The translations under genes were made by a program, and so were the position numbers. From a virus (Duplodnaviria > Heunggongvirae > Uroviricota > Caudoviricetes), in IMG/VR virus record IMGVR_UViG_2850808358_000001: a stretch of 19,777 bases of DNA, one strand, 5' to 3'. Below the pieces are notes generated by a model. It saw only the letters and a program-made list of their open reading frames with translations. It had not been told where the DNA came from and made no database searches. Below, in pieces: positions 1 through 19,777 of the stretch (position 1 is the stretch's first letter; each line of letters begins with the position of its first letter).

Positions 1-303
1 ATGAGCAGAAAAACCCAACGTTACTCTAAAGAGTTCAAAGCCGAAGCTGTCAGAACGGTTCTTGAAAATCAACTTTCGATCAGTGAAGGCGCTTCCCGAT
101 TATCCCTTCCTGAAGGCACTTTAGGACAATGGGTTACCGCCGCCAGAAAAGGGCTCGGTACTCCTGGTTCCCGCACGGTGGCTGAACTGGAATCTGAAAT
201 TCTGCAACTGCGTAAGGCGTTAAATGAAGCTCGCCTTGAGCGAGATATATTAAAAAAAGCAACAGCGTATTTTGCACAGGAGTCGCTGAAAAATACGCGT
301 TAA
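1..303 (+). CDS. IS3-family transposase OrfA (HTH DNA-binding part)
   Basis: 100-aa [23 protein letters not shown]...; typical IS3 OrfA with HTH and leucine-zipper-like C-terminus; A7G slippery run at 252..259 near its 3' end. Confidence 0.9.
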   Translation: MSRKTQRYSKEFKAEAVRTVLENQLSISEGASRLSLPEGTLGQWVTAARKGLGTPGSRTVAELESEILQLRKALNEARLERDILKKATAYFAQESLKNTR

Positions 304-338
304 TCGAACAATGGCGACAACAATTTCCCATTGAAGCG

Positions 339-1157
339 ATGTGTCAGGTATTTGGTGTATCCAGGAGCGGTTATTACAACCGGGTACAGCATGAACCCTC
401 AGACAGAAAACAAAGTGATGAGCGGCTAAAACTGGAGATTAAGGTGGCACATATCCGCACTCGCGAAACATATGGAACCCGGCGGCTCCAGACGGAGCTG
501 GCAGAGAATGGCATCATCGTTGGTCGTGACCGACTGGCACGTCTTCGTAAGGAGCTAAGGCTACGCTGTAAGCAGAAACGCAAGTTCAGAGCGACTACGA
601 ACCCGAACCACAATCTGCCAGTTGCGCCAAATCTGCTGAACCAGACGTTCGCTCCTACAGCACCAAATCAGGTCTGGGTGGCGGACCTGACGTATGTTGC
701 CACACAGGAGGGATGGTTGTACCTCGCTGGCATCAAAGATGTTTATACGTGCGAAATTGTCGGCTACGCCATGGGAGAGCGCATGACAAAAGAGCTGACA
801 GGTAAAGCCCTGTTTATGGCGCTCAGGAGCCAGCGCCCACCTGCCGGGCTAATCCACCACTCTGATCGAGGTTCACAGTACTGCGCATACGATTACCGGG
901 TCATACAGGAGCAGTTTGGTCTGAAAACATCAATGTCGCGTAAAGGTAACTGTTACGACAACGCTCCGATGGAAAGCTTCTGGGGAACGCTGAAAAATGA
1001 GAGCCTGAGCCACTATCGTTTTAATAACCGGGATGAAGCCATCTCAGTAATACGGGAATACATTGAGATTTTCTACAATCGTCAGCGTCGTCACTCTCGT
1101 CTGGGGAATATCTCCCCGGCAGCCTTCAGGGAAAAATATCATCAGATGGCTGCTTAA
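339..1157 (+). CDS. IS3-family transposase OrfB (DDE catalytic domain), probably made as an OrfAB fusion by -1 frameshift
   Basis: 272-aa ORF; the -1 frame is open from the A7G motif (252..259) into this ORF; the ...HHSDRGSQY...YDNAPMESFWGTLK... region fits a DDE integrase-type core. Confidence 0.9.
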   Translation: MCQVFGVSRSGYYNRVQHEPSDRKQSDERLKLEIKVAHIRTRETYGTRRLQTELAENGIIVGRDRLARLRKELRLRCKQKRKFRATTNPNHNLPVAPNLLNQTFAPTAPNQVWVADLTYVATQEGWLYLAGIKDVYTCEIVGYAMGERMTKELTGKALFMALRSQRPPAGLIHHSDRGSQYCAYDYRVIQEQFGLKTSMSRKGNCYDNAPMESFWGTLKNESLSHYRFNNRDEAISVIREYIEIFYNRQRRHSRLGNISPAAFREKYHQMAA

Positions 1158-1200
1158 AAAAAGAACAAATGGTAGTGTCCGCTATTGCCAGTACACCTCA

Positions 1201-1320
1201 AAGTGCAAGCTGGTTCTTTAGTTTTGTTACTTCTTCAAGTTCAGTGAACACCCCGGACTTAATTAAAGCGTTACGAGCGATTGTCTCTTTCATTCTCGTT
1301 GTTAAGCGGATTGATGACAT
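1201..1320 (-). pseudogene. 5' portion of a hypothetical phage gene, 3'-truncated by IS600 copy 1
   Basis: ATG at 1320..1318 preceded by GAGAGG SD; reading frame MSSIRLTTRMKETIARNALIKSGVF... runs straight into the IS terminus, which supplies the stop codon. Confidence 0.4.
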
Positions 1321-1499
1321 ATTAATTCCTCTCAAATAAGTGGTTTGCTGCCTGATTTCATTTTCTGGCGACCAACACAAGTCACCCCCATTTCACTGCG
1401 TGGCTTGCGGTAGTAAAGATTGTGCCTGTCTTTTAACCACATCAGGCTCGGTGGTTCCTTCACTTTCCACAGTCAAAGGAAAGGAAGGTTCAGCGGCTG

Positions 1500-1916
1500 C
1501 TATTGAGGTGCTGGAAGTTCAGAAACCGATTTATCAAATGCTTTTCGCTCACGTGAAATAGTTTCTGCCTGATTAATCATTACCTGAGCCTGCTGGCGAA
1601 CAGCTTCACTGGCAGGCTCTTTTGTTAAGAGCTGTGTAAAACCCGCGATAATGTTGCTGGCTAACATCTCAAACCGTTTTTTCTGAATATCTCTTGATTC
1701 TTCATCAATTGGTGGTTCACTATTGCTTAGTGCCGTTACATATACGCGAATTGCCGCTGACCGGACATCATCAGGAAGATGATCAAATGTACTGGCTCTT
1801 GTTTTTACAAGTTCGACAATATTTGCCTTCTTAATATCTTCAGTTTTTTCATCAAGTACTGAGATAAAATTTTTTACTGATGCTTCTAATAACGCTTCTA
1901 ATTTATTTAAATCCAT
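1500..1916 (-). CDS. hypothetical early-left protein (138 aa)
   Basis: ORF MDLNKLEALLEASVKNF...; GAGG SD 8 nt upstream of ATG at 1916; lies directly downstream of the N-like gene; no family recognised. Confidence 0.5.
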   Translation of the reverse strand: MDLNKLEALLEASVKNFISVLDEKTEDIKKANIVELVKTRASTFDHLPDDVRSAAIRVYVTALSNSEPPIDEESRDIQKKRFEMLASNIIAGFTQLLTKEPASEAVRQQAQVMINQAETISRERKAFDKSVSELPAPQ

Positions 1917-8378: not shown

Positions 8379-8815
8379 AAAAACTAACCTTTGAAATTCG
8401 ATCTCCAGCACATCAGCAAAACGCTATTCACGCGGTACAGCAAATTCTTCCAGACCCAACCAAACCAATCGTAGTAACCATTCAGGAACGCAACCGCAGC
8501 TTAGACCAGAATCGAAAGCTTTGGGCTTGCCTTGGTGACGTCTCTCGTCAGGTTGAATGGCATGGTCGCTGGCTGGATGCAGAAAGCTGGAAGTGTGTGT
8601 TTACCGCGGCATTAAAGCAGCAGGACGTTGTTCCTAACCTTGCCGGGAATGGCTTTGTGGTAATAGGCCAGTCAACCAGCAGGATGCGTGTAAGCGAATT
8701 TGCGGAGTTATTAGAGCTTATACAGGCATTCGGTACAGAGCGTGGCGTTAAGTGGTCAGACGAAGCGCGACTGGCTCTGGAGTGGAAAGCGCGATGGGGA
8801 GATCGGGCTGCATGA
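8375..8815 (+). CDS. ninB: NinB-like recombination protein
   Basis: [24 protein letters not shown]...; position after the replication genes matches lambdoid ninB; assignment from memory. Confidence 0.8.
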
Positions 8816-9501
8816 CTATCAAATCAAATACGCCAGCACACGACAAGGACTGCTGGCAAACGCCACTTTGGCTTTTTGATGCGCTGGATATTGAGTTTGG
8901 ATTCTGGCTGGATTCGGCAGCGAGCGACAAAAATGCTCTGTGCGCTCACTGGCTAACTGAGGCCGACGACGCGCTCAATTCTGAGTGGGTAAGCCACGGT
9001 GCAATCTGGAATAACCCACCGTACAGCAATATCAGGCCGTGGGTGGAAAAAGCCGCTGAGCAGTGTATACAACAGCGACAGACGGTAGTTATGCTTGTGC
9101 CAGAGGATATGTCAGTCGGATGGTTCAGCAAGGCTCTGGAGAGTGTTGACGAAGTTCGCATCATCACTGATGGACGGATTAATTTTATCGAACCATCGAC
9201 AGGGCTGGAGAAAAAGGGAAACAGTAAAGGCTCAATGCTGCTGATTTGGCGACCGTTCATCAGTCCCCGGCGAATGTTTACTACCGTATCCAAAGCGGCA
9301 TTGATGGCGATCGGGCAGGGCGGCATGAGGCGACAGCGACGAAGTATTACCGACATAATCTGTGAAAACTGCAAATACCTTCCAACGAAACGCTCCAGAA
9401 ATAAACGCAAGCCAATCCCAAAAGAATCTGACGTAAAAACCTTCAACTACACGGCTCACCTGTGGGATATCCGGTGGCTAAGACATCGTGCGAGGAAATG
9501 A
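8812..9501 (+). CDS. phage DNA N6-adenine methyltransferase (Dam-like) with an unusual basic C-terminal extension
   Basis: NPPYS motif (DPPY-type motif IV) and CWQTP...F.LD.AA pattern of phage Dam family; ATG 8812 overlaps the ninB stop; last ~55 aa are Lys/Arg-rich and atypical. Confidence 0.75.
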
Positions 9502-9542: not shown

Positions 9543-9851
9543 TTAAACGAAGCGGATCTGGAGTTTTTTTCCAGTAGCGCGGGCGAATTTTTTTAGTGTG
9601 GCAAATGATGGGCCGCTGATACCTGATGCGAGATTACTTTCCATTCTGGTGATCGCGGTCGCTTTTGTTCCCATTCGCTCGGCAACTTCAGCCTGAGTTA
9701 AGCCAGCTTCTTTGCGTGCTGCCAGCATTTCATCAAGCAGTGCGAATTCGTCAGCGATAGCGTCGTATTCTGCTTTAAAAGCCGGGTCTTCCATCCATTT
9801 GGCTGCCATTTCGTCGTGTGTCATGGTGGGGAGAGTGCGTTTACCAGTCAT
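9543..9851 (-). CDS. HTH (XRE-family) antitoxin, HigA-like
   Basis: 102-aa ORF with HTH (GLTQAEVAERMGTKATAITRME); its ATG overlaps the toxin stop by 11 nt (ATGACTGGTAA); toxin-first gene order is typical of HigBA-type modules. Confidence 0.75.
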   Translation of the reverse strand: MTGKRTLPTMTHDEMAAKWMEDPAFKAEYDAIADEFALLDEMLAARKEAGLTQAEVAERMGTKATAITRMESNLASGISGPSFATLKKFARATGKKLQIRFV

Positions 9852-10170
9852 GCTTAACCTCCTTCATTCTGGTTTCAGCTTTCTTGCGTTCGGCTGGCGG
9901 TGTTTTCTGCGTTTTCTTTACAAAACTATGCAGCATGATGATGCGTTTCCCTGTCAGAGTGCAGTAAAAAACACGCGCGATCCCATCGTTGCCTTTAATT
10001 CTGAGTTCGAAAAGTCCGTCACCAAAGGCGCTGGTGTGAGGTTCTCCGAGATTGCTGCCATATATCTTCATACGTTCAACGAGATGTTGGTATCGGGCAC
10101 GCATACTCAATGGAAGCCGATCGACTTCCAGCCTTACATCTTCACTGTAGTATTCGATAGTGTAGTTCAT
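9841..10170 (-). CDS. RelE/HigB-superfamily toxin (Gp49-like)
   Basis: 109-aa ORF from MNYTIEYYSEDVRLEVDRLP...; size, toxin-first order and overlap with an HTH partner fit a type II toxin. The ORF track extends it to 10251 via an upstream start that I reject. Confidence 0.75.
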   Translation of the reverse strand: MNYTIEYYSEDVRLEVDRLPLSMRARYQHLVERMKIYGSNLGEPHTSAFGDGLFELRIKGNDGIARVFYCTLTGKRIIMLHSFVKKTQKTPPAERKKAETRMKEVKHDW

Positions 10171-10180
10171 AGGTATCAAC

Positions 10181-10196
10181 ATAACAAAATCGTTAT
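10181..10196. promoter_or_regulatory. palindromic putative operator upstream of the toxin gene
   Basis: ATAAC-AAAATC-GTTAT perfect inverted repeat 11..26 bp upstream of the toxin ATG, overlapping a candidate -10 region on the - strand. Confidence 0.4.
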
Positions 10197-10292
10197 ATGC
10201 ATTCAAGGCCTGTAGTTGACGACAACACATATCCGGGGCTATATTCCTCATACGCCAGCAAAATCTGGCGTCGGGATTGAGACCCCGGATGT

Positions 10293-10749
10293 TTACGGAG
10301 CGATATGAGACGCGCCCGCGTCTTTTTTCATATCGTTTGCACAGTCACATTCGCGATTTATGGTGGGCTGTGTGGGGGAGCCGAAACCGATAACCATTTC
10401 TTTGTTGAAGAGACAAAGCGAGCAGGCCAGTCCGATCGCGGTCCAACTGAGCCCCATTTCACGGGATTTTTCGGTAATACCATTCTCCCGATTGCTCCAG
10501 CGTTCCATAATCCAGTGGATCCACTCCTCCTGCTTAGGGAAGAGTAAAAACGGAATGGTCACCGGCAGGCCATAATCAATATTACGCGGGTCCGTTGTCA
10601 TGCCCCAGCCGATAATGAACTGAGCCGGGTTGGTACGGTAAAACTGTTTTAGTGCAGGCAATATTTCAGGATTCTGGCGAATGCGCTGTAGGCGTTCCAT
10701 CCGCCATTCAAAAACCATCTGGTAATCAGGATGTTTAAAATCGAAGGGT
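10293..10749 (-). pseudogene. large terminase subunit, N-terminal ATPase portion only; split by IS600 and 3'-truncated
   Basis: Frame ...[15 protein letters not shown]...[20 protein letters not shown]... resembles the N-terminal ATPase region of P22-like TerL; continuous in frame with the 6 codons at 12014..12030 across IS600 copy 2; stops after ~150 aa where a full TerL would be ~450-500 aa. Confidence 0.65.
10308..10328 (+). terminator. intrinsic terminator-like hairpin with T5 tract on the + strand
   Basis: AGACGCG..CGCGTCT stem followed by TTTTT; lies inside the 3' end of the truncated terL reading frame, suggesting foreign junction sequence. Confidence 0.45.
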
Positions 10750-10813
10750 TGAGGTAGCCTGAGTTTAACGGACACTCCTTCCTGAAATAGAATGGCATCA
10801 GAAGGAGCTAATA

Positions 10814-11116
10814 ATGAGCAGAAAAACCCAACGTTACTCTAAAGAGTTCAAAGCCGAAGCTGTCAGAACGGTTCTTGAAAATCAACTTTCGATCAGTGAA
10901 GGCGCTTCCCGATTATCCCTTCCTGAAGGCACTTTAGGACAATGGGTTACCGCCGCCAGAAAAGGGCTCGGTACTCCTGGTTCCCGCACGGTGGCTGAAC
11001 TGGAATCTGAAATTCTGCAACTGCGTAAGGCGTTAAATGAAGCTCGCCTTGAGCGAGATATATTAAAAAAAGCAACAGCGTATTTTGCACAGGAGTCGCT
11101 GAAAAATACGCGTTAA
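10814..11116 (+). CDS. IS3-family transposase OrfA
   Basis: Identical protein to copy 1 OrfA. Confidence 0.9.
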
Positions 11117-11151
11117 TCGAACAATGGCGACAACAATTTCCCATTGAAGCG

Positions 11152-11970
11152 ATGTGTCAGGTATTTGGTGTATCCAGGAGCGGTTATTACAACTGGGTAC
11201 AGCATGAACCCTCAGACAGAAAACAAAGTGATGAGCGGCTAAAACTGGAGATTAAGGTGGCACATATCCGCACTCGCGAAACATATGGAACCCGGCGGCT
11301 CCAGACGGAGCTGGCAGAGAATGGCATCATCGTTGGTCGTGACCGACTGGCACGTCTTCGTAAGGAGCTAAGGCTACGCTGTAAGCAGAAACGCAAGTTC
11401 AGAGCGACTACGAACCCGAACCACAATCTGCCAGTTGCGCCAAATCTGCTGAACCAGACGTTCGCTCCTACAGCACCAAATCAGGTCTGGGTGGCGGACC
11501 TGACGTATGTTGCCACACAGGAGGGATGGTTGTACCTCGCTGGCATCAAAGATGTTTATACGTGCGAAATTGTCGGCTACGCCATGGGAGAGCGCATGAC
11601 AAAAGAGCTGACAGGTAAAGCCCTGTTTATGGCGCTCAGGAGCCAGCGCCCACCTGCCGGGCTAATCCACCACTCTGATCGAGGTTCACAGTACTGCGCA
11701 TACGATTACCGGGTCATACAGGAGCAGTTTGGTCTGAAAACATCAATGTCGCGTAAAGGTAACTGTTACGACAACGCTCCGATGGAAAGCTTCTGGGGAA
11801 CGCTGAAAAATGAGAGCCTGAGCCACTATCGTTTTAATAACCGGGATGAAGCCATCTCAGTAATACGGGAATACATTGAGATTTTCTACAATCGTCAGCG
11901 TCGTCACTCTCGTCTGGGGAATATCTCCCCGGCAGCCTTCAGGGAAAAATATCATCAGATGGCTGCTTAA
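11152..11970 (+). CDS. IS3-family transposase OrfB (DDE domain)
   Basis: Identical to copy 1 OrfB except R14W (c to t at 11194). Confidence 0.9.
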   Translation: MCQVFGVSRSGYYNWVQHEPSDRKQSDERLKLEIKVAHIRTRETYGTRRLQTELAENGIIVGRDRLARLRKELRLRCKQKRKFRATTNPNHNLPVAPNLLNQTFAPTAPNQVWVADLTYVATQEGWLYLAGIKDVYTCEIVGYAMGERMTKELTGKALFMALRSQRPPAGLIHHSDRGSQYCAYDYRVIQEQFGLKTSMSRKGNCYDNAPMESFWGTLKNESLSHYRFNNRDEAISVIREYIEIFYNRQRRHSRLGNISPAAFREKYHQMAA

Positions 11971-12013
11971 AAAAAGAACAAATGGTAGTGTCCGCTATTG
12001 CCAGTACACCTCA

Positions 12014-12030
12014 GGGAATGGTAACGGCAT
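12014..12030 (-). pseudogene. first 6 codons of terL (MPLPFP), separated from the rest by IS600 copy 2
   Basis: ATG at 12030..12028 overlapping the terS stop region; joins in frame to 10749 when the IS is removed. Confidence 0.5.
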
Positions 12031-12032
12031 AC

Positions 12033-12587
12033 TTAGCCCATCATTTTTCTATACACCTCTGCGGCCTGCTCAGGCGTTAATTTGGTAATTTCTGTTCTGA
12101 CTGGTCCTCCGTCAGCGCCAGTCACTTCATTTTTGACGTTGTCTTTAAACGCCTGAACAGAAACATGACGCCCAAGCAACTCAAGGTTTTTAACCTTATC
12201 AGGCCATTTGATTTTCTTCAGAAGTGCGGTGCTATCTGCGGATACCATCTCCACGACATCCATTCCTGATAGCGTTGTGCGCCATACCTTAGGCCAGTCT
12301 TTAATGGGCTTTAGCTCACCGTTTTGCAGGAGAATGTCGAGCACATCCATCTGGTCGATTTCAACCAATCTACGAAGAACATAGGCGGCATCTATACCCG
12401 TCTGCTCAACGCGGGCGGATTTAAGTTCAGCAACGAATTTTTGAACATTAACATTTGCTAATAATCGAGATGCCTGCTCATTGGCGGTCTTCTCGCTGTA
12501 GCCCGCCCTGATAGCTGCCTGTGTGCCGTTCAGATCTTTCAGGTACTCACGGGCAAACAGCTCTTGTTTGTCGGTGAGCTTTGCCAT
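12033..12587 (-). CDS. terminase small subunit
   Basis: 184-aa ORF MAKLTDKQELFAREYLKDLNGTQAAIRAGYSEKTA...; HTH-like N-terminus typical of small terminase subunits; immediately upstream of terL. Confidence 0.75.
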   Translation of the reverse strand: MAKLTDKQELFAREYLKDLNGTQAAIRAGYSEKTANEQASRLLANVNVQKFVAELKSARVEQTGIDAAYVLRRLVEIDQMDVLDILLQNGELKPIKDWPKVWRTTLSGMDVVEMVSADSTALLKKIKWPDKVKNLELLGRHVSVQAFKDNVKNEVTGADGGPVRTEITKLTPEQAAEVYRKMMG

Positions 12588-12688
12588 TATTTGTGCTCCG
12601 TTTATCCGTTAAAAGGGATATCAGTTAAGTTATCCCGTGTAGGGTATAAGCCATTATCAAGCCCACCAGTAGATGGGCTTTGTAATGG

Positions 12689-12946
12689 CTACTTCGCTTT
12701 TGCTTCCGCTCGCTTACGCCGGCGCTCTTCTTTCCTCTCGGCTTTTGCCATGTCCATGAATGTCTGCATGATCGAGTTCCGCATCATGTAGCTAACAAAG
12801 TGATGATTGACACAGCCGTTGAGGCGCAGCTGCTCGCCAAACTCATCCACCGAGGCCAATGCTTCCATCATGCCCTTCTCGCCTTTCATGAACTCTGAGA
12901 AGTCGCGCCCCGCTCTGGAGGCGCATTCAATGACACGATCACTCAT
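12689..12946 (-). CDS. hypothetical protein (85 aa) with basic C-terminus
   Basis: ATG overlaps the stop of the KilA-N gene (ATGA coupling); C-terminal ERKEERRRKRAEAKAK; no family recognised. Confidence 0.5.
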   Translation of the reverse strand: MSDRVIECASRAGRDFSEFMKGEKGMMEALASVDEFGEQLRLNGCVNHHFVSYMMRNSIMQTFMDMAKAERKEERRRKRAEAKAK

Positions 12947-13440
12947 CCCGGAAGCCCGGGGATCGTTATCTGCAGCTGGTTAGCCAGGGAGTTAATCTCA
13001 GCGACCAACACTGGCTTCGTATAGCGCCATGCCGCCAGCCCTTGTCCACAGAAGCTCGCCATATCTTTTTTCTGATCAAACTCATGACACTTCATATTGA
13101 GCTGCGCACTTAAGCTGTTGCGATGCTGAAGTTCTCCGGTGAAGTAGTCATCCAGGACTTTATAGGCTGCATATTTAAATCCGGGGTTTAGCCATGCTGC
13201 ATAATCATAAGCAACAAACTTCCCGCCATATGTTCCACCGTGTACACCGCGCTCAGTAAAAACCACAGATTCGTGGTTTTTCTCCAGCTCGGCTAAGAAC
13301 TCTTTGGTCTGCTTGTTTCGCAGGTAGTGGTACGGAGATTCAGATTCACTTTTACCACTGGCTTTCCACATATCAGTGAGGCAGATCATTCCTGATTCAT
13401 CAACACGGATCGGTGTATTAAAAAGCGTGATTGCTTTCAT
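12943..13440 (-). CDS. KilA-N domain protein
   Basis: Pattern ...KQTKEFLAELEK...TERGVHGGTYGGKFVAYDYAAWLNPGF... fits the KilA-N DNA-binding domain signature as I recall it. Confidence 0.7.
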   Translation of the reverse strand: MKAITLFNTPIRVDESGMICLTDMWKASGKSESESPYHYLRNKQTKEFLAELEKNHESVVFTERGVHGGTYGGKFVAYDYAAWLNPGFKYAAYKVLDDYFTGELQHRNSLSAQLNMKCHEFDQKKDMASFCGQGLAAWRYTKPVLVAEINSLANQLQITIPGLPG

Positions 13441-13588
13441 GGCGTCTTTACCTTTTAGAAAGATGAGCCTGTTCGCACAGAAAAGCCGTCCCCGAGATGG
13501 TCGCCACCATATACGGCAATTCTCAGGCTCAGCTTTCTGAAAGACTCGGGGTTTATATGCGCTGCGATGCGCGGTTTACTGCGGACAT

Positions 13589-13612
13589 ATAAAAGCCCCG
13601 CAAGTGCGAGGC
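13589..13612 (-). terminator. terminator-like hairpin downstream of Rz/Rz1
   Basis: Minus strand GCCTCGCA-CT-TGCGGGGC (one mismatch) followed by TTTTAT. Confidence 0.45.
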
Positions 13613-13645
13613 TCATTAAATGGACTTTGTGATTTGCAAAAAAAT

Positions 13646-14113
13646 TTATTTCAGGCACTGAGTCCTGATGTACTCCTGAAGCATTCTCAATGCTGTCTGG
13701 TCGCTGATGATTCCGTCCCGGATACCGAGAACGTTTCGTCCAGCAACTGGAGAGAGTTCGACGGTGGCATCATTGCCCATGCCGGAGGCGCTGGAGGTTT
13801 CGGCTGAGGATGGCACAGGGCATTTTCCTTTGACGAGCACCCGACCACCATTATCAAGCTTGCGCCGAAGAGCATCATTTTCAGCTTTCGCATTGGCTAA
13901 CTCCTTCGTGTATTTAGCATCGAGTGCATCAGCAGCACGCTGGCGCTGCTGCATGTCAGTAATGGTTGCGTTCGCCAGCTTCAGTTCTCTTGCGTTTTTG
14001 TCGCGCTGCTCTTTGTAGGTAATGGCGTTATCACGGTAATGATTAACAGCCCATGACAGGCGGACGATGATGCAGATAACCAGAGCGGAGATAATCGCGG
14101 TGACTCTGCTCAT
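13646..14113 (-). CDS. Rz: Rz i-spanin
   Basis: [17 protein letters not shown]...[11 protein letters not shown]...[18 protein letters not shown] closely resembles lambda Rz; ATG overlaps the R stop (ATGA). The ORF track starts 4 codons earlier at 14125. Confidence 0.85.
13687..13893 (-). CDS. Rz1: Rz1 o-spanin (lipoprotein) embedded in the +1 frame of Rz
   Basis: [21 protein letters not shown]... with lipobox-like VVGC and Pro-rich PKPPAPPAW, like lambda Rz1; fully inside Rz in another frame. Confidence 0.6.
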
Positions 14114-14607
14114 TGCTGCCCCCACAAACAGACTTCACGCTCAATCTCACGACGGGTCATCAGCCCTTTCCATTGCTTACCGCCAGCATATGTCCAGCGA
14201 CGTAGCTGGTCACATGCGCCTTTGATATCGCCCTGGTTTATTTTGCGAAGAAGCGTCGATGTTCTGAAATTGCCAGCGCCCACGTTGTAAACGAACGAGT
14301 AAAGAGCGCCGCGCGTTGTTTCCGGTATATCGACTTTGATGTACGGGTTAATTTGTCTGGCGACAGTGGCAAGGTCTTTATTCAGGAGAGCTTTGCATTC
14401 TGCTTCGGTATACGTTTTACCAGGCATGATGTCTTTTCCGGTGTGTCCGTGACATACAGTCCATACACCAATGATATCTTTGTATGGTATGTAGCTGACA
14501 CCTTCCAGACCATCGTTACCACCTGGGCCAGTGATTAACACAGATGCTATAGCAACAGCCCCGCCACCAATAGCAACTGCAACAGCCTTGCGTAATGATG
14601 GCGACAT
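14110..14607 (-). CDS. R: SAR endolysin (phage-21 R type lysozyme)
   Basis: N-terminal Gly/Ala-rich signal-anchor-release segment ([18 protein letters not shown]) followed by a lysozyme domain; near-identical to phage 21 R as I recall it. Confidence 0.9.
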
Positions 14608-14822
14608 TATTCACCTCTCGCAGCCTTACGCTTGTCTTCTCTTAATTTGAAATACAGATTCGTCAGATAAGTCAGAAGCCCCAGAAGCAGACTTCCCAGC
14701 ACACCAATCGCAGCCCACTGTGATGGACTGACCTGATCCAACCACTGCAAAAACCAGTAGCCGGCACTGCCGGCGGAGGTGCCGTAGGCAATGCCCGTTG
14801 AAATTTTGTCCATGGATTTCAT
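14607..14822 (-). CDS. S: pinholin (phage-21 S type) with dual-start motif MKSM
   Basis: 71-aa [47 protein letters not shown]...; two TM segments; GGAGG SD upstream; start overlaps the R gene. Confidence 0.9.
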
Positions 14823-14937
14823 AGCCTCACCTCCGCAAATAACGGATGGCGTAGTTCTTATATTGGAAGGGAAAAAAAAGGCCGCAGCGTAACTGTCACT
14901 GATGAATTCAGGATAGCCAGTGGCTACGGCTCAGTTA

Positions 14938-15013
14938 TGGTGCTGGTTAACGGACTTGAACCGCTACCCATTCGCTTACAAGGCGACTGCTCTACCATTA
15001 GAGCTAAACCAGC
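14938..15013 (-). tRNA. phage-encoded tRNA, anticodon read as UGU (tRNA-Thr), CCA encoded
   Basis: Manual fold of the minus strand: acceptor GCUGGUU/AACCAGC, D-arm GCUC/GAGC with GG loop, anticodon loop CUUGUAA, T-arm with UUCAAGU loop, 3' ACCA; one non-WC pair at the top of the anticodon stem. Confidence 0.6.
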
Positions 15014-15018
15014 ATATT

Positions 15019-15093
15019 TGGCGGGACAGCGTGGACTCGAACCACGATAAGAAGGTTAACAGCCTTCCGTAATGACCTTTATACGACTGACCC
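15019..15093 (-). tRNA. phage-encoded tRNA, anticodon read as GUU (tRNA-Asn), CCA encoded; may be degenerate
   Basis: Manual fold: T-arm CGUGG-UUCGAGU-CCACG perfect, anticodon stem GAAGG/CCUUC perfect with loop CUGUUAA; acceptor and D stems each carry one mismatch. Confidence 0.5.
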
Positions 15094-15125
15094 AAATAAA
15101 AAATCCCGAAAGCAGGCTCTATTCC
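15094..15125 (-). terminator. putative tR'-like terminator region (U-tract) ending the short pR' transcript
   Basis: Minus strand ...AGAGCCTGCTTTCGGGATTTTTTATTT about 180 nt downstream of pR'; resembles the lambda tR' 3' end as I recall it, but I could not fold a clean stem. Confidence 0.35.
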
Positions 15126-15282
15126 TATGTGCTCTCGAGTTTATGATGCGCATGTCAGTGCGCTTAGCGAAAAACGCCGTAAACCCTCGCCCGACAGGGC
15201 GGGGAGCAGTCACAACTTAAAGATGAGGTGGGTAAAAAACCGAAAGAATGTGAACGGATATAAACCTGCCATTCTTGAGTCA

Positions 15283-15311
15283 AATTTACCCAACTTTATT
15301 CAAAAAGTCAA
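15283..15311 (-). promoter_or_regulatory. late promoter pR' with qut-like region
   Basis: Minus strand TTGACT-N17-TAAATT followed by TTGACTCAAGAATGG; closely resembles lambda pR'/qut as I recall it; located ~40 bp downstream of Q. Confidence 0.65.
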
Positions 15312-15353
15312 TATCATGCCGTTAAGATATTGCCATCCATGGCAATCATGCCG

Positions 15354-15977
15354 CTAACGTGTGACCGCATTCAAAATGTTGTCTGCGATTGACTCTTCTT
15401 TGTGGCATTGCACCACCAGAGCGTCATACAGCGGCTTAACAGTGCGTGACCATGTGGGTTGGGTGAGGTTTGGGATTAGCATCGTTACAGCGCGATATGC
15501 TGCACTTGCTGGCATCCTTGAATAGCCGACACCTTTGCATCTTCCGCACTCTTTCTCGACAACTCTCCCCCACTGCTCTGTTTTGGCTATATCAACTGCC
15601 AGACCTGTTCCGTGGCAATCTCTGCATCTTGCGCCCGGCGTCGCGGCACTACGGCAATAATCCGCATAAGCGAATGTTGCGAGCACTTGCAGTACCTTTG
15701 CCTTAGTATTTCCTTCGAGCTTTGCCACACCACGGTATTTCCCCGATACCTTGTGTGCAAATTGCATCAGATAGTTGATAGCCTTTTGTTTGTCGTTCTG
15801 GCTGAGTTCATGCTTACCGCAAAATGCAGCCATTCCGAATCCGGCTTGTGATTGCGCCATCCCCATAGCAGCCATCACATCAGTACCGGAAAGAGAGTCA
15901 GAAGCCGTAGCCCGTGGTGAGTCGCTCATCATCGGGCTTTTTGGCGAATGAAATTTAGCTACGCTTTCGAGTCTCAT
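15354..15977 (-). CDS. Q: antitermination protein Q (Cys-rich type, as in phage 82/21-like Q)
   Basis: 207-aa ORF with CRDCHGTG...CGRCKGVGY zinc-binding-like motifs; directly upstream of pR'; ATG overlaps the upstream gene stop. Confidence 0.7.
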   Translation of the reverse strand: MRLESVAKFHSPKSPMMSDSPRATASDSLSGTDVMAAMGMAQSQAGFGMAAFCGKHELSQNDKQKAINYLMQFAHKVSGKYRGVAKLEGNTKAKVLQVLATFAYADYCRSAATPGARCRDCHGTGLAVDIAKTEQWGRVVEKECGRCKGVGYSRMPASAAYRAVTMLIPNLTQPTWSRTVKPLYDALVVQCHKEESIADNILNAVTR

Positions 15978-16162
15978 CGTCTTCCCCTCTTGCCCTGTTT
16001 GACCATCAGGACGCCGTTAACTATTACGTGACGCTCGCCTTTGCTGTCTCGGTTGTACTTGAGCACTGTTCCTCTTGCGCAGGAAAGCATCCTCGCCACT
16101 TCGGTCTGATTGCCTCGTGTCTGGATAAGAAGCTCTGGTATCGTTTGAATTGTGGCGTTCAT
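15974..16162 (-). CDS. small nin-region protein (62 aa), possibly DNA-binding
   Basis: ORF MNATIQTIPELLIQTRGNQTEVARMLSCARGTVLKY...; translationally coupled (ATGA overlaps) with rusA upstream and Q downstream. Confidence 0.5.
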   Translation of the reverse strand: MNATIQTIPELLIQTRGNQTEVARMLSCARGTVLKYNRDSKGERHVIVNGVLMVKQGKRGRR

Positions 16163-16521
16163 ACGTTCTCCAGTTCGGTGATTTTTATTCCAAGCCTTCC
16201 GCCTGGTACTTTCACACCACGAATTACGCGAATGTCATCGAATTGCTCGTCGTCTTCCGCAAATCCGGCGTGGATAAGAGAGTCGAGTAGCCCCTTCAGG
16301 ATGTTGTCGAGGTCGCGGCGGCGGGAGTCTGGAACGTCTGCGATGACTTTGATGCGGAGTCGTGCTTTGGTGAAAATATCTAACTTGAGTTGGCGGATGA
16401 TTTGCTGAACGTCTTTTCGGTATTTCTGGCCTTTATCGCTGATGTAGTATTGGCTTCCCCGTCTTCGCCAGTAGGTGTTCAGCGACGGTGGGTATGGAAG
16501 CACAAACTGATATTCGTTCAT
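16159..16521 (-). CDS. rusA: RusA Holliday-junction resolvase
   Basis: Motifs PPSLNTYW and DSRRRDLDNILKGLLDSL match the RusA family signature. Confidence 0.85.
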   Translation of the reverse strand: MNEYQFVLPYPPSLNTYWRRRGSQYYISDKGQKYRKDVQQIIRQLKLDIFTKARLRIKVIADVPDSRRRDLDNILKGLLDSLIHAGFAEDDEQFDDIRVIRGVKVPGGRLGIKITELENV

Positions 16522-16808
16522 GGCTTAATCTTCCCCTCCTTCAGCAGTATCGCCTGCGTCCTGATCACGCCTTCGAGGTGGTAAAGTCTGGCGTCTTTGT
16601 TGTCGAGGTTATGGGTGCGTCGGTCGATTTCATCGTGACACGCGCTACAAGCCCATGCGCCGATCAGGTCGTCAGGCTTCATTCCCGTTCCGCAAATTCC
16701 AGCCATCCGGTAATGTGCCAGAACTGTAGTTTCAGGATTGCCATTGCATACGCCGTAAATACGTACCTGGCATTCTCTGCCGCGCGCTTCTTTGCGTAAG
16801 TTAGCCAT
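16518..16808 (-). CDS. YbcO-like nin-region protein (DUF1364-type, Cys/His-rich putative nuclease)
   Basis: MANLRKEARGRECQVRIYGVCNGNPETTVLAH...CSACHDEIDRR resembles DLP12 YbcO as I recall it; GGAGG SD; upstream of rusA as in DLP12. Confidence 0.75.
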   Translation of the reverse strand: MANLRKEARGRECQVRIYGVCNGNPETTVLAHYRMAGICGTGMKPDDLIGAWACSACHDEIDRRTHNLDNKDARLYHLEGVIRTQAILLKEGKIKP

Positions 16809-17536
16809 TAAGCAGCCTCCCCTGTTACTTTCAGCATTCCGTTATAGAGCAGCTTTCTGGTCAGCCACTGTTGGCCACGCCCGGTGATTTTTGTGGTGAA
16901 CGATATCTGTATTCCGTGATTTGTGTTGACTGCTGTTTCTTTCACTGTGAAATAGCCGCGATCCATATATTCCTGCATTGGCACATTGCGCCGGGAACCT
17001 GAAGCAATAAGGATTTTGTGATCGCGCATCCACGCAAACAGTTTGTTTGGACCAATTCCAACAACCTTTGCAAAGTTTCCAATCAAAATTCCGCTGGCCT
17101 CGCTAACGCGATCGGCAAACTCAACTTTAGGTGCTGCGAGAGCAAGCTGTTTCTCCAGTTCAGCCTTCTGGTCTTCAAGGTCGGCCGCAAGGCGCAATGC
17201 CTCAGAAAAGGTTTGTGGGATTTTCGCGGTTGCCCCTTCAAGCTCTCGCCAACGGTCAACAAGACGAGCGGTGAATTCCGGCGACAACTGGGCAACGACA
17301 ATAATGCTGTCGCGCTTACCTTGTTCGCCTTCGAAGACGTAATGCTCGTACTGAACATTGAACCCTAAGTTATTGATTCTTTCGGAAACCTCAAATTGAG
17401 GATGCCGGATAACACCATTTTTAGCCAGCGTTTCGATGGTACGTTTCACATTGTCATGACGCTTACCCACCAACTCAGCGATTTCAATGCTGGTCATTTT
17501 GATGGCGTTGCTATTTATCAGCTCGTTCATTGTCAT
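16808..17536 (-). CDS. phage antirepressor (Rha-type N-terminal domain plus Ant-like C-terminal domain)
   Basis: N-terminus ...MTSIEIAELVGKRHDNVKRTIETL matches the Rha family signature; the likelier start is ATG 17530 (GAGG SD at 8 nt) rather than 17536. Confidence 0.75.
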   Translation of the reverse strand: MTMNELINSNAIKMTSIEIAELVGKRHDNVKRTIETLAKNGVIRHPQFEVSERINNLGFNVQYEHYVFEGEQGKRDSIIVVAQLSPEFTARLVDRWRELEGATAKIPQTFSEALRLAADLEDQKAELEKQLALAAPKVEFADRVSEASGILIGNFAKVVGIGPNKLFAWMRDHKILIASGSRRNVPMQEYMDRGYFTVKETAVNTNHGIQISFTTKITGRGQQWLTRKLLYNGMLKVTGEAA

Positions 17537-17553
17537 GTCCTCTCATATTGAAA

Positions 17554-17575
17554 ATTCAGCAATAAAAAACCCAGC
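17554..17575 (-). terminator. rho-independent terminator
   Basis: Minus strand CCCAGC-TTCG-GCTGGG hairpin followed by TTTTTT; downstream of the ORF ending at 17605. Confidence 0.6.
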
Positions 17576-17604
17576 CGAAGCTGGGTCGTTGCGTTGGCAA
17601 TCTG

Positions 17605-17976
17605 TCAGTAGTGATGTAGTGAAGGAGGTAATTCTTTGTTCTTAAGTCTTACCCATGCAGAAAGATTCGTTGGTCCGTCTGGCTCATTAATATCAACATC
17701 TCGTGTGTGATTGATTAAAACGTCTCTCGCCATTCCGATAACATACGAGAACTCATGACCGTAGTCGTGGCATCTGCCGGAATAGTTAGACTGAATTTGT
17801 CTTAGCGCCGGATACAGTTCGCGGAATAATGCCTGTGAGCGGTTGGCATAATCCCACAACCATACCAGACTGTTTGCATCTTTTGCAGAAAGCTCGCTGG
17901 TTTTCTTCTCGTGATGACCTGCGCTTTTCGAAGTCTGGCTGAAATAGCAGTCTTCCAGTTTTTCGAACACGTCCAT
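17605..17976 (-). CDS. hypothetical protein, or C-terminal part of a frameshifted ORF6N-domain gene
   Basis: 123-aa [17 protein letters not shown]... overlapping by ~175 nt the other open frame that continues from the ORF6N domain. Confidence 0.4.
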
Positions 17977-18281
17977 GCCTGATCGGTTTCGAGCATCTTC
18001 GCGTGACGGGCTGCGCCTCGTTCTGTCCAGAGGATGAGCGAGCGGGCATTTTTACCAACTAACCCGATTGTTTCGGGTCTGTTCTTAAACTCGCGTAATT
18101 CGTTTTTTTCAATTTTAAAGTAATGCTTTCCTACCACGAATCGCATCGTGTTGTTCAGAAAATTATCAGAAATGTTTTTGATTTTTGTTCCGTATAACTG
18201 CGCCAGAAGTTCAGTTGTAATAACGGGGATCTGGTTGTGGGTGATTGCAGGAAGAGTGTCGACAGAAATTTGAGTGAGCAT
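17802..18281 (-). CDS. ORF6N-domain (antirepressor-like) protein
   Basis: ...[15 protein letters not shown]...NISDNFLNN...[14 protein letters not shown]...[24 protein letters not shown] fits the ORF6N-type domain pattern; ATG 18281 with GGAG SD; the ORF track extends the frame into IS600 because the IS end is open in that frame. Confidence 0.55.
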
Positions 18282-18409
18282 AACGATAACTCCGTACATT
18301 TGGTCATTATCGCCACCTTCTGGTCTCAATAATCTGGTGGCGAGCTGAGGTAGCCTGAGTTTAACGGACACTCCTTCCTGAAATAGAATGGCATCAGAAG
18401 GAGCTAATA

Positions 18410-18712
18410 ATGAGCAGAAAAACCCAACGTTACTCTAAAGAGTTCAAAGCCGAAGCTGTCAGAACGGTTCTTGAAAATCAACTTTCGATCAGTGAAGGCG
18501 CTTCCCGATTATCCCTTCCTGAAGGCACTTTAGGACAATGGGTTACCGCCGCCAGAAAAGGGCTCGGTACTCCTGGTTCCCGCACGGTGGCTGAACTGGA
18601 ATCTGAAATTCTGCAACTGCGTAAGGCGTTAAATGAAGCTCGCCTTGAGCGAGATATATTAAAAAAAGCAACAGCGTATTTTGCACAGGAGTCGCTGAAA
18701 AATACGCGTTAA
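18410..18712 (+). CDS. IS3-family transposase OrfA
   Basis: Identical protein to copies 1 and 2. Confidence 0.9.
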   Translation: MSRKTQRYSKEFKAEAVRTVLENQLSISEGASRLSLPEGTLGQWVTAARKGLGTPGSRTVAELESEILQLRKALNEARLERDILKKATAYFAQESLKNTR

Positions 18713-18747
18713 TCGAACAATGGCGACAACAATTTCCCATTGAAGCG

Positions 18748-19564
18748 ATGTGTCAGGTATTTGGTGTATCCAGGAGCGGTTATTACAACCGGGTACAGCA
18801 TGAACCCTCAGACAGAAAACAAAGTGATGAGCGGCTAAAACTGGAGATTAAGGTGGCACATATCCGCACTCGCGAAACATATGGAACCCGGCGGCTCCAG
18901 ACGGAGCTGGCAGAGAATGGCATCATCGTTGGTCGTGACCGACTGGCACGTCTTCGTAAGGAGCTAAGGCTACGCTGTAAGCAGAAACGCAAGTTCAGAG
19001 CGACTACGAACCCGAACCACAATCTGCCAGTTGCGCCAAATCTGCTGAACCAGACGTTCGCTCCTACAGCACCAAATCAGGTCTGGGTGGCGGACCTGAC
19101 GTATGTTGCCACACAGGAGGGATGGTTGTACCTCGCTGGCATCAAAGATGTTTATACGTGCGAAATTGTCGGCTACGCCATGGGAGAGCGCATGACAAAA
19201 GAGCTGACAGGTAAAGCTCTGTTTATGGCGCTCAGGAGCCAGCGCCCACCTGCCGGGCTAATCCACCACTCTGATCGAGGTTCACAGTACTGCGCATACG
19301 ATTACCGGGTCATACAGGAGCAGTTTGGTCTGAAAACATCAATGTCGCGTAAAGGTAACTGTTACGACAACGCTCCGATGGAAAGCTTCTGGGAACGCTG
19401 AAAAATGAGAGCCTGAGCCACTATCGTTTTAATAACCGGGATGAAGCCATCTCAGTAATACGGGAATACATTGAGATTTTCTACAATCGTCAGCGTCGTC
19501 ACTCTCGTCTGGGGAATATCTCCCCGGCAGCCTTCAGGGAAAAATATCATCAGATGGCTGCTTA
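18748..19564 (+). pseudogene. IS3-family transposase OrfB inactivated by frameshift
   Basis: G-run is GGG at 19391..19393 where copies 1 and 2 have GGGG; the ORF stops prematurely at 19401 (217 aa instead of 272). Confidence 0.8.
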
Positions 19565-19608
19565 AAAAAAGAACAAATGGTAGTGTCCGCTATTGCCAGT
19601 ACACCTCA

Positions 19609-19777
19609 CCCTGACGTATACCCACAGACGACCCGTTTTCGTCTTTCCGTTCCCCGGGGCCAGTACTTTCACCGGAGTGTCATCTGCGTGCACCTTTCCT
19701 GCCTCCAGAACATAGTCATTCAGCGCTATATACAGAGGACGGAGTTTGTCTGCCATTTCTGATACCCAGCGCACCAT
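19609..19777 (-). pseudogene. IS66-family transposase fragment, interrupted by IS600 copy 3 and running off the window
   Basis: Frame ...HADDTPVKVLAPGNGKTKTGRLWVYVR ends exactly at the IS600 terminus; motif typical of IS66-family transposases. Confidence 0.6.

Follow-up and report, generated by a model that had tools for sequence, protein, structure and literature searches.

Results

Truncated frame at the end of an IS600 element

The window, that is, the whole 19,777-nt stretch of DNA analysed here, opens at the orfA ATG of an IS600 element (copy 1; 1–1200, plus strand), which was delimited by its direct repeats with two further copies (copy 2, 10750–12013; copy 3, 18346–19608) and by Pfam matches. 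The first 64 nt of copy 1 lie outside the window. Its orfA spans 1–303 (frame 1; Pfam HTH_Tnp_1) and its orfB 339–1157 (frame 3, corresponding to −1; Pfam rve, rve_2, rve_3 and HTH_21). The three copies remain identical up to exactly 1200, 12013 and 19608, respectively, which places the right end of IS600 at nucleotide 1200. The right terminal inverted repeat (1174–1200, plus strand; ...GGACACTACC...ACACCTCA), which ends in CA at 1200, emerges when the left end at 10750 (TGAGGTAGCCTGAGTTTAACGGACACT) is compared with the reverse-complemented right end (TGAGGTGTACTGGCAATAGCGGACACT). A length of ~1264 bp, imperfect terminal inverted repeats of the form TG...CA, an orfA with a helix–turn–helix domain and an orfB with a DDE-type rve domain in the −1 frame are the structural features of IS600 within the IS3 family.

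Directly adjacent to this terminus, an ATG on the minus strand (1320–1318) starts a reading frame with exactly 40 sense codons (1320–1201), followed by TGA. Translation from 1320 to 1198 yields MSSIRLTTRMKETIARNALIKSGVFTELEEVTKLKNQLAL and then the stop, with no earlier stop in this frame. According to translation and alignment, the TGA (1198–1200, minus strand) consists of the outermost three nucleotides of IS600. The element is oriented convergently with the truncated gene and is placed exactly after codon 40, so that its terminus TGAGG... provides the in-frame TGA; the sequence across the junction reads ...CAGCTTGCACTT|TGAGGTGTACTGGC.... A Shine–Dalgarno sequence, GAGAGG (1328–1333, minus strand), can be read 7 nt 5′ of the ATG and is kept in the aligned intact homologues. 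The original prediction of a frame with a good Shine–Dalgarno sequence that starts at 1320, meets no natural stop before the IS boundary and receives its stop codon from the IS600 terminus is thus borne out by re-translation. Read in either of the other two frames, the IS600 end would likewise have brought a stop, after 6 or 15 codons, so that a stop supplied by the IS is expected and unremarkable. A TTG at 1380, which would give a product of 60 aa, was considered as an alternative start and rejected, as homologues begin at the ATG equivalent to 1320.

Identity of the truncated gene

The 40-aa peptide is identical at 39 of 40 positions (E = 8e-25) to residues 1–40 of WP_000095081.1, a 207-aa protein of the E. 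coli O157:H7 Stx1 prophage that reads on past codon 40 as ...LAL-DARVIAFGGKKK...; the 207-aa homologues run through the breakpoint as ...LAL-DARVIAFGG.... The Pfam family Nmad5 (PF18757) matches the peptide with 32.4 bits (E = 1.3e-7), above the gathering cut-off of 27 bits, at profile positions 1–36 of 206, whereas the intact 207-aa protein matches the profile from end to end with 239.7 bits. The remnant thus holds only positions 1–36 of a complete Nmad5 domain (~206 profile positions), and on these profile matches we class it as a fragment of an Nmad5 family member and not as a functional member. Together, the 39/40 identity, the Pfam match and the break in the DNA alignment annotate 1201–1320 (minus strand) as the start of an Nmad5-family gene, a pseudogene fragment with 40 of 207 codons.

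The DNA break is sharp. In a three-way alignment, identity to the intact gene extends from 1201 on and there is none to the left of 1201, so that the breakpoint at 1200/1201 falls precisely at the IS end. Copy 2, full-length at 1264 bp, shows 100% identity to elements on S. boydii and E. coli plasmids that carry the annotation 'IS3-like element IS600 family transposase'. That IS600 truncates the gene, as originally proposed, is confirmed.

The intact gene is widespread. The 90% cluster of the peptide has 2436 members, and nearly all among those listed are 207 aa long; the 120 nt and the region upstream of them have matches in hundreds of lambdoid phages and in about one third of complete E. 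coli genomes, in which the product is annotated as 'Nmad5 family putative nucleotide modification protein'. The protein belongs to phrog_1965, a PHROG family of unknown function, and its biochemical role is a predicted one in nucleotide modification only. It had been suggested to compare the peptide with early-left proteins of P22-like phages: an early-left protein is indeed the match, but the best matches are found in Stx1-type lambdoid prophages and not specifically in P22-like phages.

Early-left operon context

The first gene of the early-left operon encodes an antitermination protein N of the 933W/Stx-phage type (1919–2302, minus strand; Pfam N_peptide, E = 2e-15), whose DNA is 99.4–99.6% identical to N of 933W and other Stx phages. 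N is separated from the truncated gene by a complete gene for a 138-aa hypothetical protein (1500–1916, minus strand), which is called in the loci L003 to L007. Its exact product sequence is on record as 'hypothetical protein [Shigella boydii]', and searches of both the Pfam and the PHROG profile sets returned no significant family for it. The remnant shares its strand with N and is located downstream of N, and this synteny is kept in intact phages, which identifies it as an early-left (pL) gene in agreement with the original prediction.

Intact relatives show two arrangements, (i) N, Nmad5, DUF2528, cIII, kil, gam, bet and exo, and (ii) N, hypothetical genes, Nmad5, erf and anti-RecBCD. The combination of N, the 138-aa gene and Nmad5 was found in no complete E. 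coli genome of the collection searched, so that the intact ancestral order is a reconstruction from mosaic relatives. The ~180 nt that separate the 138-aa gene from the start of Nmad5 (1321–1499) are themselves mosaic: 1201–1457 matches E. coli NCCP 13717, and the O157 Stx1 prophage departs from the window sequence after 1384.

A consensus scan of 1100–2800 for promoters and terminators gave nothing above shuffled expectation. Between the 138-aa gene and the remnant it detected no site resembling an intrinsic terminator; the sole terminator-like site (2000–1988) lies inside the N gene, and only a weak promoter-like match was predicted upstream of N.

DNA beyond copy 1

The window is 100% identical to the Shigella boydii chromosome CP026877.1 over all 11,320 comparable nucleotides. 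An S. boydii origin is also indicated by the plasmids with adjoining accession numbers, which belong to S. boydii, and by the record of the exact 138-aa protein. An exact look-up of the 40-aa product returned 12 contigs, namely two complete chromosomes (CP026877.1 and CP026845.1) and ten short-read contigs. In CP026877.1 (locus L004) copy 1 is complete, with 1264 nt at L004 10121–11384. Beyond it, the sequence to the left of the window, which the original prediction had singled out for inspection, enters the chromosome at K-12 coordinate 965429 inside ycaI and continues leftwards via ihfB, rpsA, cmk and ycaL. In CP026845.1, the DNA beyond IS600 instead starts at K-12 coordinate 948262 inside ycaM and proceeds rightwards via ycaN, ycaK, pflA, pflB, focA and ycaO. 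The distal flank of copy 1 thus differs at position 11385 of L003 versus 11385 of L004, beyond the left edge of the window. Both flanks derive from a single 17.2-kb K-12 segment, one from each of its ends and in opposite orientation, a pattern that would fit an inversion between two inverted IS600 copies.

In neither CP026877.1 nor CP026845.1 is IS600 adjoined by the remainder of the Nmad5 gene or by the left arm. Genes for integrase, xis, exo/bet/gam and erf and genes of the att side were found neither in the window nor in the 20-kb loci, in keeping with the original prediction that recombination, integrase and attachment functions are missing from the window. The accompanying proposal that the left arm is cut off beyond N stands insofar as chromosomal DNA lies across IS600 and no left-arm genes adjoin it; the cut is not directly beyond N, as the 138-aa gene intervenes.

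A simple insertion of IS600 is expected to produce a 3-bp target-site duplication. Copy 1 is flanked by no such duplication in either CP026877.1 or CP026845.1, where the flanks in gene orientation are CTT-IS-AAG and CTT-IS-TTT.

Further IS600 copies and rearrangements in the window

Copy 2 is missing from the otherwise 99.9% identical CP026845.1, where the empty site reads CGAAGGGGAATGG. Its flanks (GGT-IS-GGG; empty site GGGG) represent a near-perfect, that is, imperfect, 3-bp duplication; because of these flanks and the empty site, copy 2 is a recent simple insertion. It splits the 5′ fragment of a large-terminase gene (phrog_2, E = 3e-8). In copy 3, a 1-nt deletion shifts the reading frame of orfB (217 aa versus 272 aa); this copy has no target duplication (AGC-IS-CCC) and joins two unrelated truncated genes. 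One of its neighbours, at 19609–19777 (minus strand), is part of an IS66-family transposase gene (PF03050, E = 2e-15, profile positions 42–97) that is cut by copy 3.

The late and nin segment (10387–18345) is inverted relative to the replication genes and contains TerL′, TerS, KilA-N, Rz, lysozyme, holin, Q, RusA, YbcO, ANT/Rha and ORF6N′; a look-up of the ANT protein matched S. dysenteriae genomes and showed this inversion. Compared with S. dysenteriae Sd197, ORF6N is split, with ~80 nt of its 5′ end at 10306–10386 (plus strand) and the rest running from 18347 to 16780 (minus strand). No IS is present at the 10386/10387 junction. A 123-aa ORF at 17605–17976 had no record in the look-up.

Within the nin region, 9543–10251 (minus strand) encodes a HigB/HigA-like pair (Gp49 family toxin and HTH_3 antitoxin) with 99% identity in the Sd197 remnant. 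A single gene at 8752–9501 has both Dam (PF05869) and NinE (PF05322) Pfam matches and is called with a 229-aa product in S. boydii loci; in its Sd197 counterpart only a 73-aa NinE gene is called.

The combination of a 933W-type N and IS600 flanks suggested the stx region of S. dysenteriae type 1 as a source of the window. This reading was rejected because the window contains no stxA-sized ORF, the late-region ORFs scanned contain no Pfam toxin family, and the identity to the S. boydii chromosome is 100%.

Discussion

Copy 1 as a rearrangement breakpoint

Taken together, we hold it to be highly probable that 1201–1320 is what is left of the 5′ end (codons 1–40 of 207) of a gene of the Nmad5 family, situated in the N-dependent pL operon of an S. 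boydii prophage of lambdoid, Stx-phage-like type, and that IS600 here connects the prophage with truncated housekeeping DNA. Copy 1 marks a rearrangement or deletion breakpoint and is not a simple insertion. In the pathway that we consider most likely, IS600 would have inserted into the Nmad5 gene after codon 40, and homologous recombination between IS600 copies, by deletion and/or inversion, would then have swapped the distal flank. An Nmad5 null allele would result, together with an early-left operon to which no integration, excision or recombination module adjoins. The 167 remaining codons, the genes that normally follow (cIII, kil, the recombination genes, xis and int) and attL do not lie across the IS; the 3′ part of the gene and the left arm may survive elsewhere in the genome beside another IS600 copy. 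With regard to the order of events, insertion followed by IS–IS recombination is the course we infer, as opposed to a one-step IS-mediated adjacent deletion.

If copy 1 were a simple insertion, the gene would merely be interrupted, and its remaining codons and the entire left arm would follow across the IS, outside the window. The window contains such an insertion in copy 2 and itself stops inside the IS, so that taken alone it leaves room for this explanation. The complete genomes do not: across the IS, CP026877.1 has ycaI′, ihfB, rpsA and cmk and CP026845.1 has ycaM′, ycaN and pflA/pflB, and the 3-bp duplication is present in neither, which makes a simple insertion very unlikely. Both distal flanks also bear on the question of a mis-join at a repeated IS. 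IS600 is multicopy, and repeats are a common cause of mis-assembly, yet this junction is seen in both complete genomes, whose distal flanks differ, and again in ten independent short-read assemblies with contigs that reach 27 nt into the IS before they end; we give an assembly artefact hardly any credence.

A genuine short gene of 40 aa, or of 60 aa from the TTG at 1380, that ends naturally here and merely has the IS as a neighbour would be in line with the good ribosome-binding site and with the listing of the 40-aa product by gene callers. It would be hard to reconcile with homologues that are 207 aa long and read through the breakpoint, with DNA identity that ends at the IS end and with a peptide that covers only positions 1–36 of the 206 of the Nmad5 profile, and we regard it as exceedingly improbable. 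The breakpoint reading, with a truncated Nmad5 gene and a swapped distal flank, is the one we retain.

Consequences for the gene and the prophage

Since only 17% of the domain is left, the truncated Nmad5 allele is presumably null. At most the 40-aa peptide could be made, and only with pL derepressed. We see no sign that the truncation goes beyond neutral decay. In one experimental study, the nmad5 of a Dhillonvirus was connected with sensing by the Tmn defence system and could not be cloned, apparently because of toxicity (PMC11846954). Loss of full-length Nmad5 might have been selected and not neutral, in which case IS600 would have removed a costly or defence-triggering gene, or the 40-aa peptide would keep an activity of its own; we see only a slim chance of this. 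Because no integration, excision or recombination module adjoins the early-left operon, the prophage should be unable to excise from here as a complete phage.

For annotation, the 40-codon ORF is best labelled as an IS600-truncated Nmad5 pseudogene and the prophage as a defective remnant; the importance of the locus beyond annotation is small. The junction between Nmad5 codon 40 and IS600 offers a handy clade marker for a group of S. boydii genomes, and the ycaI and ycaM distal flanks would provide a clean example of an IS600-mediated chromosomal inversion of ~17 kb between strains.

Comparison with known systems

What we describe is an ordinary pseudogene, truncated by IS600 at the margin of a defective lambdoid S. 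boydii prophage that has been heavily rearranged, and as such it is known in kind. IS600 is one of five IS types that have expanded in all Shigella species, producing pseudogenes and strain-to-strain variation (PMC7373316), and IS-driven rearrangements are described as frequent in Shigella (PMC8072062). The window copies resemble reference IS600 in length (1264 bp), in orfA with HTH_Tnp_1 and orfB with rve, in their TG...CA ends and in sequence (99.9–100% identity). Copy 1 differs from the reference in that it has no target-site duplication and joins unrelated DNA, as a recombination junction would and a fresh insertion would not. Compared with intact Nmad5 (WP_000095081.1), the remnant shares residues 1–40 (98% identity), the same ribosome-binding site and the position downstream of N, but keeps only 40 of 207 codons.

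Among the IS-bounded defective lambdoid prophages of Shigella, a close counterpart is the prophage remnant of S. dysenteriae Sd197 (CP000034), in which IS600 joins int directly to ninB. Both share ninB, ninE, the HigBA-like pair, ORF6N and ANT at 99% identity as well as an IS600-bounded deletion of the same kind. They differ in what the deletion has spared: Sd197 keeps the integrase and has lost the immunity and early-left region, whereas the prophage in the window keeps the immunity region, N and the replication genes and has lost the integrase side. The two IS600-bounded prophages represent one process with different breakpoints.
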